Shown: positions 10,033 through 13,268 of the stretch, piece by piece
Layout of the letters: each line of letters begins with the position of its first letter
Numbering within the stretch: position 1 is the first letter of the stretch
Virus genome (UHGV): UHGV-0126033
Length of the DNA stretch: 14,369 nucleotides
Origin: a virus
Direction: 5' to 3' (one strand)
The notes under the pieces: generated by a model
What the model was told of the DNA's origin: nothing
Database searches by the model: none
What the model saw: the letters and a program-made list of their open reading frames with translations, nothing else
Made by a program: the position numbers and the translations under genes

Positions 10033-10233
10033 CTAACATAGTTCAATCTCCCCCACTACATCCAGCATAGCATTGTCGTGAATGAGAGAATCCAAATGCT
10101 CAACCGTTCTTCGATGTGTTTTGGGTGCTCGTTCACGCAGCGCAACCAGAATAGTTTCAAGTTCATCATGTTTCCCCTCGTAGTATAACTCAATCGCCCG
10201 CAGGCTCATTTCCTTCGCAGACATCTTCGCCAT
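10033..10233 (-). CDS. Hypothetical small acidic protein (66 aa from the ATG at 10233)
   Basis: Track ORF 10033..10302. The ATG at 10231-10233 (MAKMSAKEM...) has AGGAG 12 nt upstream and overlaps the exonuclease 3' end by 44 nt. Glu/Asp-rich. No motif. Confidence 0.45.
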   Translation of the reverse strand: MAKMSAKEMSLRAIELYYEGKHDELETILVALRERAPKTHRRTVEHLDSLIHDNAMLDVVGEIELC

Positions 10234-11158
10234 TGTCTGGGTGCTCCTGTATCCACTGTATATGCTGTTTATGGTACTCGTGCAGCGAATGCACCCAGTC
10301 ACGCAGACTGGGAGTAGTCAACAGTGACATCAGATACAGGTACGCTGAATCTGACGGGGAGCGCCGCAGGAACAGGCATTCTGCCTCTGCGAGTACATCT
10401 TGGTTGTTTCGAGCGTAAGCCGCTACAACGAATTCTGCGGCGTCCTGCTCTGAGGTAATAGGGTAGATAGCATCAAAGGCCGTTCGCTTCCCACAGAGCT
10501 TCCCATCAAGCAATGTGATGCCTTTGACGTTATCTGCGTCATCTCCTGCTAGCATCTGCCACCAGAAGAACTTAGTGCCATGCGCTCGTACCGGCATAGC
10601 CTGGGTATCATCCCACTTAATCCATCCGAAGGGGTTATCCAAGGCAGGCCATACGGTTCCGGTTGGGATATCGAACCGGGCCATAGGGCTGAGCCAGGAG
10701 TCCTTGTCCTGAGACATCAGGATTCCACGGTCCCCGAAGCTGTACGAATCCATTATGAACAGGTCATCCGCCTCGAAGTAGTCACTGCTTACTACCTGAA
10801 TACCCTGCTCAGAATACTGGTCTGGATTTTCAATCAGGTGCCGCTTCAATGGCGCCTTGAGCGGTAGCTCCTGTCGATTAGCGCGCTGCCCCTGATAGGG
10901 CTTAGCCGTAGGCAGGTGCCAGCGCAAACACTTGGCGCATCCCGTAGGCGTCAGATACGCAACTGCTTCTGAGCAGCCGACCAGGAACATGTCCTCAAGC
11001 ACCAGCTGATAGAAGCGGCGTATTGCGGTGTCCAAACGTTTCACTGTAGCGGCAGATTTATAAACTGTGAAATCCGCATCGTACAGCAGAATCTTCCCAG
11101 AGTTCTGCGGAGCTAACTGCTCCCCGAGCTGGGACAAGTCAACCCCGTTGATAATCAT
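10190..11158 (-). CDS. 5'-3' exonuclease (FEN family, T7 gp6-like)
   Basis: 322 aa. Acidic active-site blocks in the expected order: ILLYDADFTVYKSA, FEADDLFIMD, MSQDKDSW, LAGDDADNVKGI. ATG at 11156-11158. Confidence 0.8.
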   Translation of the reverse strand: MIINGVDLSQLGEQLAPQNSGKILLYDADFTVYKSAATVKRLDTAIRRFYQLVLEDMFLVGCSEAVAYLTPTGCAKCLRWHLPTAKPYQGQRANRQELPLKAPLKRHLIENPDQYSEQGIQVVSSDYFEADDLFIMDSYSFGDRGILMSQDKDSWLSPMARFDIPTGTVWPALDNPFGWIKWDDTQAMPVRAHGTKFFWWQMLAGDDADNVKGITLLDGKLCGKRTAFDAIYPITSEQDAAEFVVAAYARNNQDVLAEAECLFLRRSPSDSAYLYLMSLLTTPSLRDWVHSLHEYHKQHIQWIQEHPDNGEDVCEGNEPAGD

Positions 11159-11319
11159 CAGACCCCCGTAACCTTCTTGGTCAACTTACGCGCCCAGGAT
11201 TCCCAGGCGGTCAGCGCCTTGCTGTTCTCTACCTTCTCAAACACCCAGCACAAGATGGCTACCGGTACTAGAGGGGCCACTAGCATAAAATAAAATACTC
11301 TGGCAAGGGTATTTCGCAT
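11158..11319 (-). CDS. Unlisted small ORF, 53 aa, predicted single-pass membrane protein
   Basis: Hand translation MRNTLARVFYFMLVAPLVPVAILCWVFEKVENSKALTAWESWARKLTKKVTGV. ATG at 11317-11319 with GGAGA seven nt upstream; TGA stop overlaps the exonuclease ATG as ATGA. Fills an otherwise 160-nt gap. Below the track length cut-off. Confidence 0.4.
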   Translation of the reverse strand: MRNTLARVFYFMLVAPLVPVAILCWVFEKVENSKALTAWESWARKLTKKVTGV

Positions 11320-11321
11320 TA

Positions 11322-11519
11322 TTAAATCTCCAGTCTAGCTACTGATTTAGTAGCTGATTTCACCTGCTTACGGGTAGGTTTAGCGGCCCAGCGCACCACG
11401 TACATGGTGCAAGGGTCGTCCTCCCGGATAAAGGTTACGTACCAGCGGTTGCAGGCATGCTCAGCATAAGGTGCCATAAAGCTGTGCCTAGGTGCGTGCA
11501 CCTCTACACGTACGCCCAT
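11322..11519 (-). CDS. Hypothetical protein (65 aa from the ATG at 11519)
   Basis: Track start 11525 is a TTG; the ATG at 11517-11519 has GGAGG seven nt upstream and lies 2 nt after the upstream gene stop. Protein MGVRVEVHAPRHSFMAPYAEHACNRWYVTFIRE...; no motif. Confidence 0.5.
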   Translation of the reverse strand: MGVRVEVHAPRHSFMAPYAEHACNRWYVTFIREDDPCTMYVVRWAAKPTRKQVKSATKSVARLEI

Positions 11520-11521
11520 GC

Positions 11522-11893
11522 TCAAGCCTCCAGCTCAGATAGCACCAGCACGGTGCCGAGCATGTCCCCGATTACTTCCGGAGTACGCAGGCTCTGGTCT
11601 ACGTCGTAGATGCAGGAACCAATCTCCGCCAGCCCGATGCTTAGCGTACCCACTACACGGATAAGCACGAGGTCGTCGCCACGTAGCTTATCGGCATGTG
11701 CCGCCAGGTCGTTGTGCTCTTTGAAGGCGGTAGCGGCCAACTCCAGGTCCATGCCGTACAGGGCCGCCAGCTTGTCCAGAGCATCGTACACAGCGCCGAG
11801 CTGGTCACCATTGTCGAAACCTTGAACGGCGCTACAGTTCACGTAACCTACAGCCAGAACCAGTTTCTTGTATGCGTCTAGTACTTTGTCCAT
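11522..11893 (-). CDS. Hypothetical acidic protein (123 aa); weak resemblance to all-alpha NTP pyrophosphohydrolase (MazG-like) helices
   Basis: ATG at 11891-11893 overlaps the upstream stop as TAATG. Segments LAEIGSCIYD and EVIGDMLGTVLVLSE loosely resemble MazG-type E-x-x-E and E-x-x-D helices, but the order is atypical, so the call is tentative. Confidence 0.5.
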   Translation of the reverse strand: MDKVLDAYKKLVLAVGYVNCSAVQGFDNGDQLGAVYDALDKLAALYGMDLELAATAFKEHNDLAAHADKLRGDDLVLIRVVGTLSIGLAEIGSCIYDVDQSLRTPEVIGDMLGTVLVLSELEA

Positions 11894-12479: not shown

Positions 12480-13268
12480 TTAGGCTTGATGTGCGGCGGG
12501 TGCTGCTGGCGCCACAGGGGCTGCAGGGGCCACTGGTGCAGCCGGGGCTGCGGGTGCCTGCATAGCCGCCGGACTAGGAACCGAGCCAGCGTTCAGCAGA
12601 ATATCCAGAGCACTGCCAGGGAAGTCTACAGCCTTGTACATATCCTCCTGAATCCAGTTCTTGCTCTTACCATCGTCGAAGGTGCCTTCGATGTGCAGGC
12701 TATCCCAGGTCTCTTTGGTTGGGTTGTTCCACAGGAACAGCTTAATCTCAGAGGCATCCAGGGCAGGCATCTTGATAGGCTCGCCAGTGTTCGGGTCGAA
12801 TTTCGGAATCGGGCGGATACCGGACAGGTCCGCGATGTTGGACTTCTTGCCCGCGGCGCTGGTGTGCTCATCAATCGGGAAGGTGAAGGCCTGGCCCAGA
12901 CGCTGTGCTGCATGCTTAATGCTATTGTCGTAGTTGAGCTTGTCGAAGAACTTCTTGAAGCCTGCGCGCTCAAAGTTACTGATAGCCATCGGGAACGGGC
13001 GGATACGCTTCACTTCGCCGTTAGGACCGAACACTACAATGCCGATGCGTACGTTAGCTACTGCGGGCTTACCGGTCGGCTTGCCACCCTTAGTCGGCAG
13101 GCGCTTACCGATTTCTACGTACTCGGTGAAGTAGCCGTAGTATTCACCCTTCGGCAGCAGCACGTCCTCATACGCACCGCCCTGTGCGGTTTCAGTCATA
13201 TCAACATCCTGCGTTTCAATAGCAGCCGCTACCAGGGAGTTCAGGGTGTCCAGTGCATTCATCGTCAT
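12480..13268 (-). CDS. Hypothetical protein (262 aa) with C-terminal Pro/Ala-rich low-complexity tail
   Basis: ATG at 13266-13268 with GAGGAAG seven nt upstream. C-terminus SPAAMQAPAAPAAPVAPAAPVAPAAPAAHQA. No catalytic motif recognised. Confidence 0.6.
   Translation of the reverse strand: MTMNALDTLNSLVAAAIETQDVDMTETAQGGAYEDVLLPKGEYYGYFTEYVEIGKRLPTKGGKPTGKPAVANVRIGIVVFGPNGEVKRIRPFPMAISNFERAGFKKFFDKLNYDNSIKHAAQRLGQAFTFPIDEHTSAAGKKSNIADLSGIRPIPKFDPNTGEPIKMPALDASEIKLFLWNNPTKETWDSLHIEGTFDDGKSKNWIQEDMYKAVDFPGSALDILLNAGSVPSPAAMQAPAAPAAPVAPAAPVAPAAPAAHQA

Follow-up and report, generated by a model that had tools for sequence, protein, structure and literature searches.

Upstream of the exonuclease gene of this phage lies an intergenic gap of 163 nt, extending from the exonuclease start at 11158 to the stop of the preceding gene at 11322. 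The locus raises the question of whether the small open reading frame (ORF) occupying the gap is a gene, what kind of protein it would encode, and whether its contact with the exonuclease start codon has any special role. The gap lies within a 14,369-nt stretch of a viral genome (UHGV-0126033), hereafter called the window.

A megablast search with 2.4 kb around the small ORF returned 259 phage records at 80–96% identity, 233 of which were Klebsiella phages, and the examined relatives KpV41, IME337 and VLCpiA1c are classified as Drulisvirus. By sequence, the window is that of a Klebsiella Drulisvirus, a KP34-like podovirus (Autographiviridae, Slopekvirinae). Every gene in the window is on the minus strand. 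The gene order is phiKMV-like: a phosphoesterase, a 262-aa protein and several small ORFs are followed by the small membrane-protein ORF and the exonuclease, and then by endonuclease VII, a DUF3310 protein, RNA polymerase and the structural genes. The locus comprises the following features:

11322..11525, minus strand: upstream DUF7279 gene of 65–67 aa (PF23945, E = 3e-8)
11327..11331, minus strand: Shine-Dalgarno sequence GGAGA, 7 nt 5' of the small-ORF ATG, in the context ctGGAGAtttaataATG
11158..11319, minus strand: small membrane-protein gene, allele class A of phrog_7652, 53 codons plus TGA
11156..11169, minus strand: junction ACGGGGGTCTGATG, where the small-ORF TGA shares one base with the exonuclease ATG (11158..11156)
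10190..11158, minus strand: downstream gene of a 322-aa 5'-3' exonuclease (phrog_107, E = 2e-69), annotated as exonuclease in relatives

The small ORF starts with ATG at 11319, ends with TGA at 11160..11158 and translates as MRNTLARVFYFMLVAPLVPVAILCWVFEKVENSKALTAWESWARKLTKKVTGV. The TAA stop of the DUF7279 gene ends 2 nt 5' of its ATG. The first-pass annotation had proposed an ORF with GGAGA and ATG at 11158–11319 that fills the gap upstream of the exonuclease; both statements agree with our reading, which adds the strand (minus) that had been left unstated. The composition of the ORF is ordinary, with a GC-content of 0.52 versus 0.54 for the window. An open frame is no proof by itself, because a stop-free run of 53 sense codons is expected in random sequence with a probability of about 0.08 per frame; the case for a gene rests on the relatives.

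Related loci were sampled as 69 IMG/VR loci anchored on the exonuclease, together with three GenBank loci. The ORF was found in 64 of these loci, which with the window gives n = 65. Conservation of the frame in relatives had been suggested as a check, and no disruption was observed, the frame being intact in all 65 loci. Two length classes were present: class A, the type of the window, comprised 20 loci, all of 162 nt, and class B, the KP34/KpV41 type, comprised 45 loci, all of 159 nt. No indels occurred within either class across the 65 loci. The start codon was ATG in 63 loci and GTG in two, and an SD-like 4-mer starting at −16 to −7 was found in 65/65.

Substitution patterns were those of a coding sequence in this frame. 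In class A (17 distinct sequences) pooled dN/dS (Nei-Gojobori) was 0.17, and in class B (42 distinct sequences) it was 0.13; the values were 1.3–6.8 in both shifted sense frames and in two of the antisense frames. The antisense frame that has its third codon positions in common with the ORF gave 0.30–0.36. Variable sites at the three codon positions numbered 26/20/42 in class A and 21/16/37 in class B, with the third position the richest in both. Among the relatives examined, every one with an exonuclease about 59% or more identical to that of the window had the gene. On this evidence the small ORF is a genuine gene under purifying selection, and the earlier claim of a real small ORF is borne out by that selection and by conservation across relatives. 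The intact frames, the dN/dS values and the excess of third-position variation rule out that the ORF is a product of chance or no more than a translated spacer, and they also rule out a 38-aa ORF on the opposite strand (11177..11293, plus). The latter was rejected as two antisense frames have dN/dS above 1, and the low value of the third comes in the frame with shared third positions. A literature search for transcriptomes, ribosome profiling or proteomes of a Drulisvirus gave no result, and no phenotype of the gene was found either.

The gene is already catalogued in most relatives and in PHROGs, and is no new kind of element. The small protein matched the phrog_7652 HMM with E = 7.4e-30 and 103.7 bits, residues 1–53 aligning to profile positions 1–53 of 53; PHROGs v4 labels this family as of unknown function. 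A tblastn search with the 53-aa protein returned 238 phage records, 237 of which cover at least 80% of the protein. Among 60 rows sampled from this list of 238, 53 carried an annotated feature over the ORF, nearly always as a "hypothetical protein". The description of the ORF as unlisted is thus correct with regard to the default 60-aa ORF list, from which it is missing, but not with regard to the phage records. The closest annotated GenBank copies of the small protein are 98% identical, and an identical copy is present in IMG/VR (L014). Annotated copies include gene 30 of KP34 and, as "hypothetical protein", gp28 of KpV41 (YP_009188770.1; RefSeq NC_028670), QEQ50415.1 of IME337 and RCIP0044_00036, while phage Pone labels its own copy "putative membrane protein". 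The positional homologue in JKP2, ORF34, is 162 nt long and lies just 5' of an HNH gene and the exonuclease (PMC10194101, Table S6.1). The phrog_7652 family and its annotated phage copies are the same gene, in the same slot and with the same 52–53-aa single-TM build. KP34 and KpV41 differ from the window in allele only, carrying allele B, which is 32% identical to allele A of the window. Since these "hypothetical protein" entries and the PHROG family exist, the novelty of the gene is nil. Standard gene callers already detect it in most deposited Drulisvirus genomes, and the finding as first stated matters little. Drulisviruses are, nevertheless, widely used therapeutic candidates against Klebsiella pneumoniae, and this is one of the few universally conserved Drulisvirus genes that is still "hypothetical", and one of membrane type.

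Searches for function returned little. Pfam, NCBIfam, PADLOC and PDB-sequence profile searches of the small protein gave chance-level TM matches as their best results. No match to the defence and counter-defence models of PADLOC-DB was obtained at E ≤ 1 with five family members, and Foldseek comparison of the AlphaFold2 model with BFVD gave 0 matches. In the literature on phrog_7652 and on small membrane or exclusion proteins in Autographiviridae, only genome-annotation tables cover the gene.

For more distant relatives, 1.84 billion representative proteins were screened with a profile of classes A and B. Only 8 matched, all of them small homologues, fragments or fusions, and none annotated. 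Four of the 8 are proteins of 51–55 aa with the same build (P0041, P0042, P0043 and P0045). Two of these, P0042 and P0045, come from metagenomic contigs that share the gene order of the window, and are encoded directly 5' of exonucleases that are 67% and 59% identical, respectively, to that of the window. The architecture is kept in homologues only 26–50% identical to the small protein. The Drulisvirus VLCpiA1c carries a P0041-like class C allele of 55 aa in the same slot, beside an exonuclease 93% identical to that of the window. At four loci with exonucleases about 53% identical or less (L066–L069), the slot holds a non-homologous non-TM ORF or nothing. With the homologue missing at that distance, the family is confined to Drulisvirus and its near relatives.

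The position of the gene is equally constant. In 65/65 loci the small ORF lies directly upstream of the same-strand exonuclease or of an inserted HNH gene, and its stop overlaps the next start; slot and overlap also hold in L073, L074 and L075. An HNH endonuclease gene stands between the small ORF and the exonuclease in at least six loci. The DUF7279 gene on the other side is a variable neighbour, absent from many relatives, in which a 123-aa gene directly precedes the small ORF. A second 53-aa TM ORF of RCIP0044 and JKP2 was considered as a paralogue and rejected, as hhalign showed no homology.

Two segments of the protein can be distinguished beyond its short N-tail:

11239..11298, minus strand: TM segment VFYFMLVAPLVPVAILCWVF, codons 8–27 (Kyte-Doolittle), with a conserved P16-x-x-P19 kink
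11161..11238, minus strand: polar cationic tail, codons 28–53, with a Trp-rich amphipathic helix at residues 34–51

The mean Kyte-Doolittle hydropathy of the best 19-residue window (residues 8–26) was 2.37. The Hessa insertion sum for the TM segment, a simple sum of scale values, was borderline at about +1 kcal/mol, which is due to the two prolines in the segment. AlphaFold2 with the family alignment gave a model with pLDDT 87.6 and helices at residues 2–14, 17–31 and 34–51, broken at residues 15–16; the model reads as a P16-kinked TM helix with a separate C-terminal helix. TMHMM predicts 1 TMH in JKP2 ORF34 (PMC10194101, Table S6.1). The hydrophobic segment noticed in the first-pass annotation is therefore present, at residues 8–27, and its assignment as a single TM agrees with the hydropathy, the AlphaFold2 helices and the published TMHMM call.

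The C-terminal helix is rich in Trp and Lys/Arg, with a hydrophobic moment of 0.56 in allele A (residues 33–50) and 0.67 in allele B. Four residues do not vary across alleles A and B (L13, P16, W42 and A43), and Y10, P19, A21, L23, K29 and W39 are nearly invariant. T51 and G52 are conserved as well, probably because their codons, ACGGGG, overlap the Shine-Dalgarno sequence of the exonuclease. The N-tail, MRNTLAR in the window, carries 1–4 K/R and no D/E in 43/43 distinct sequences. The first residue after the TM segment is acidic (E or D) in five representatives (alleles A, B and P0041–P0045), and the C-tail is net cationic, with 6 K/R versus 3 D/E. An N-in/C-out orientation is weakly favoured by the purely basic N-tail, although the net cationic C-tail weighs the other way.

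A cleavable Sec signal peptide would have a short h-region of 7–15 residues followed by an A-x-A type cleavage site; the sequence here reads as a 20-residue hydrophobic run followed by CWVFEKV, with no small residues at −1/−3. The lipobox [LVI][ASTVI][GAS]C of Llp/Cor-type lipoproteins, phage proteins that block receptors or the entry of DNA, was found in 0/43 distinct family sequences, and in 7/43 the Cys close to the end of the TM segment gives way to V, S, L or M. Given the missing lipobox and the replaceable Cys, the small protein is not a lipoprotein.

At the exonuclease junction, an ATGA overlap had been proposed. The actual sequence is gtcTGATGatt, with a 1-nt TGATG overlap rather than one of 4 nt, and the 3' end of the small ORF reads ACGGGGGTCTGATGATT. 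The one-base stop/start overlap was found in all 65 loci, as TAATG in 45, TGATG in 19 and TAGTG in one; two distant relatives have 4-nt GTGA or ATGA overlaps instead. The final codons of the small ORF (T-G-V) contain the Shine-Dalgarno sequence of the exonuclease, GGGGG, and "ACGGGG" is kept in 65/65 loci of both allele classes. Structure in the junction RNA was not above shuffled controls (z = −0.93), with the Shine-Dalgarno sequence and ATG unpaired in the centroid. The only Rfam result was a sub-threshold eukaryotic element (E = 0.34), and no promoter or terminator signal was above expectation. RNA-element explanations of the junction were rejected, the fold being no better than shuffles and no Rfam match being above threshold. 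Overlapping or abutting gene junctions are the norm in the operon of the window. Translational coupling of the small ORF to the exonuclease is plausible and would be ordinary, the anatomy of the overlap being compatible with termination-reinitiation. The idea of a special coupling is weakened by the invariant Shine-Dalgarno sequence of the exonuclease itself, the unstructured junction, the operon-wide overlaps and the HNH gene at the junction in six or more relatives.

The small gene exists in at least three alleles (A, B and C) with protein identities of 32–42%, whereas the exonucleases next to them are 93–99% identical. At the DNA level, identity between alleles A and B is about 50%, versus about 90% in the flanks. 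In 40-nt sliding windows, between-class divergence was 0.39–0.60 over a stretch that begins near the start codon and ends some 10 nt short of the stop, and immediately outside the ORF it returned to the within-class level of 0.03–0.15. A reference-anchored scan of 21 kb in 60 genomes, from the DNA polymerase side to the structural genes in 150-nt windows, revealed excess A/B divergence only in the two windows holding the ORF (+0.11 and +0.24), with values of at most +0.02 elsewhere. No partner gene co-varying with the allele class was found within the scanned 21 kb, the exonuclease included. In one family member, P0035, recombination has joined a B-type N-terminus to an A-type C-terminus. With divergence confined to the ORF across 21 kb, and with this recombinant, the alleles act like cassettes the size of the ORF that recombine freely among genomes which are otherwise panmictic.

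Sequence change is faster in the small protein than in the exonuclease: P0042 and allele A share 50% identity, versus 67% for the exonucleases. Given this difference in rate, the split between A and B corresponds in depth roughly to one between genera. The most economical account is that alleles entered from diverged relatives by introgression via the conserved flanks, and the multi-allele pattern can be explained without an arms race, by replacement of a fast-evolving protein through homologous recombination in the flanks. Balancing selection on the alleles is possible and not required. The alleles are ancient and stand in complete linkage equilibrium with the 21 kb around them. A stronger version, to which we attach little weight, is that negative frequency-dependent selection maintains them; the small protein would then determine specificity, either when Drulisvirus phages compete with one another (superinfection exclusion) or when they face a membrane-bound host defence that is polymorphic.

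The locus is very probably a genuine Drulisvirus gene for a 53-residue single-pass inner-membrane protein made together with the DNA-metabolism genes. Its product would consist of three parts: a basic N-tail, a 20-residue helix kinked at P-x-x-P, and a Trp-rich cationic amphipathic helix of about 26 residues beginning at an acidic residue. It would be translated from its own Shine-Dalgarno sequence within a tightly packed DNA-metabolism (middle) operon. Through the one-base overlap some terminating ribosomes may re-initiate on the exonuclease, which would also be served by its own exposed Shine-Dalgarno sequence. During the replication phase, this presumably non-enzymatic protein would bind a host inner-membrane protein or the membrane itself, and it may serve to take over the host, to exclude competing phages or to evade a defence located in the membrane.

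Comparison with known small membrane proteins suggests how such a protein might act. AcrZ, MgrB and MgtS are proteins of about 30–50 residues with one TM helix, non-catalytic, which dock onto a larger membrane protein, and in AcrZ a proline kink in the helix is functionally important. The phage protein resembles them in architecture alone, with no sequence similarity. By this analogy we tentatively propose that it acts on a target in the host membrane as AcrZ or MgrB do. T4 Imm and HK97 gp15 are small inner-membrane superinfection-exclusion proteins that are made before lysis and vary between related phages. Imm, in contrast, has two TM segments, and the small protein has no homology to Imm or HK97 gp15.

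The gene occurs in every Drulisvirus examined, which suits a housekeeping role no less well, and perhaps better, than an accessory role in host interaction.

The main rival, though an unlikely one, is a membrane tether for the exonuclease or the replicating DNA. The protein would hold its partner through the cationic C-terminal helix, in the manner of phi29 p16.7 or p1, with the overlap fixing the stoichiometry. The phi29 protein p16.7 is a membrane organiser of phage DNA replication that has an N-terminal TM anchor, is expressed with replication genes, and comprises about 130 aa with a dimeric DNA-binding domain. A tether would account for a gene found in every Drulisvirus examined and always in the DNA-metabolism cluster, overlapping the next start even beside exonucleases 59–67% identical to that of the window, and for the net cationic C-tail. 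However, the alleles are only 32–42% identical and the exonuclease shows no co-variation with them (excess divergence about 0), which counts against the exonuclease as partner unless contact is made only through a few invariant residues. At least six loci accommodate an HNH gene inserted between the small ORF and the exonuclease, and the tail would be periplasmic if the protein is N-in/C-out. Compared with a p16.7-like build of a TM segment plus a DNA-binding domain of about 70 aa, the phage protein has the TM segment, but its tail is only a single helix of 26 residues, far smaller than that domain. Nor was there a sequence match in the PDB; the protein has no sequence similarity to p16.7, and phi29 belongs to a different host and phage lineage.

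It is considerably less probable that the protein is a lysis-timing or membrane-damaging peptide, either a holin, antiholin or pinholin-like protein or a Hok/TisB-like depolariser serving host shut-off. Small size, a single TM and a charged C-terminus are the general build of class III holins and Hok-type toxins. The gene, however, stands in the middle (replication) operon beside the exonuclease, endonuclease VII and RNA polymerase, and not in a lysis cassette; JKP2 has a distant spanin/holin/endolysin cassette at ORF6–8, in which ORF7 is the 83-aa holin. Searches of Pfam, PHROG-lysis, NCBIfam, PDB and BFVD gave no sequence or fold match to holin or toxin families.

That no functional protein is made, the ORF being a chance frame or a translated leader delivering ribosomes to the exonuclease start, would suit the probability of about 0.08 for a 53-codon frame, the constraint of the exonuclease Shine-Dalgarno sequence on the last codons and the universal stop/start overlap, but is scarcely credible for a frame with a dN/dS of 0.13–0.17 along its whole length, the lowest of six frames, with a length fixed per allele, with invariant or nearly invariant residues scattered across alleles about 50% identical in DNA, with the same architecture in 26–50% identical homologues, and with an exonuclease start not gated by RNA structure.

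The ORF-precise multi-allelic cassette is a mildly interesting by-product of the analysis, and makes the gene a cheap and clearly delimited target for allele swap or knockout.

The junction between the small single-TM ORF and the exonuclease gene is the exact insertion point of an HNH homing-endonuclease gene in several relatives, where the inserted gene takes over the TAATG/TGATG overlap. The following insertions were located in the relatives' loci (L numbers):

L002:2540-3046, HNH gene separating the small ORF from the exonuclease gene
L043, L044, L060, L064 and L065, ~2086-2520, HNH gene in the same position
L041 and L042, 2008-2514, HNH gene, fused form

In the fused form, the first 12 exonuclease codons are followed by the HNH gene, which is fused behind them. 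ORF35 of phage JKP2 represents the same insertion as in these relatives. The window carries no HNH insertion at its junction (11158).

The small ORF itself was found in a third allelic form in Klebsiella phage VLCpiA1c:

L075:1501-1668, third allele of the small ORF, 55 aa

This allele occupies the identical slot and shares 35% identity with the window's allele; the exonucleases of the two phages are 93% identical. Among the database homologues, protein P0035 is a natural recombinant of the B (KP34/KpV41-type) and A (window-type) alleles.

Some relatives encode a second single-TM ORF (MRKFISYIISVPALVLLAISLMLMALALSVAGGSKGVAMLGRAIHAFTDHLKV), located one or two genes upstream of the small ORF:

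L003:2724-2885, minus strand, second 53-aa single-TM ORF (also JKP2 ORF32)

It resembles the window's small ORF in size (53 aa) and single-TM build, but homology between the two was undetectable. The window lacks this second ORF.

Observations were also made on three neighboring genes of the window:

11322..11525, minus strand, DUF7279 gene (65-67 aa), upstream of the small ORF
12480..13268, minus strand, 262-aa protein, phrog_862 (unknown function)
10033..10233, minus strand, next gene downstream of the exonuclease gene, about 66 aa (MAKMSAKEM...)

The DUF7279 gene is a present/absent element, missing from many relatives of allele classes A and B alike; in these, a 123-aa gene directly precedes the small ORF (upstream context '...LSELEA*'). 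The phrog_862 protein of the window has a Pro/Ala repeat at its C-terminus (APAAPAAPVAPAAPVAPAAPAA), and its labels conflict among relatives: some call it 'large tegument protein', others 'single strand DNA binding protein', and others list it as hypothetical. The downstream gene starts, in a different frame, 44 nt before the exonuclease gene ends (at 10190), and the same 44-nt overlap is annotated in KpV41, RCIP0044 and JKP2.

Matches to the small ORF also include Escherichia and Shigella phages. A copy of this Klebsiella-Drulisvirus gene with 94% identity was found in Acinetobacter phage vB_AbaP_Indie (PQ049254.1; match H36), whose reported host is Acinetobacter baumannii. Either such a spread of hosts is unusual given the closeness of the genomes, or some host assignments need checking.
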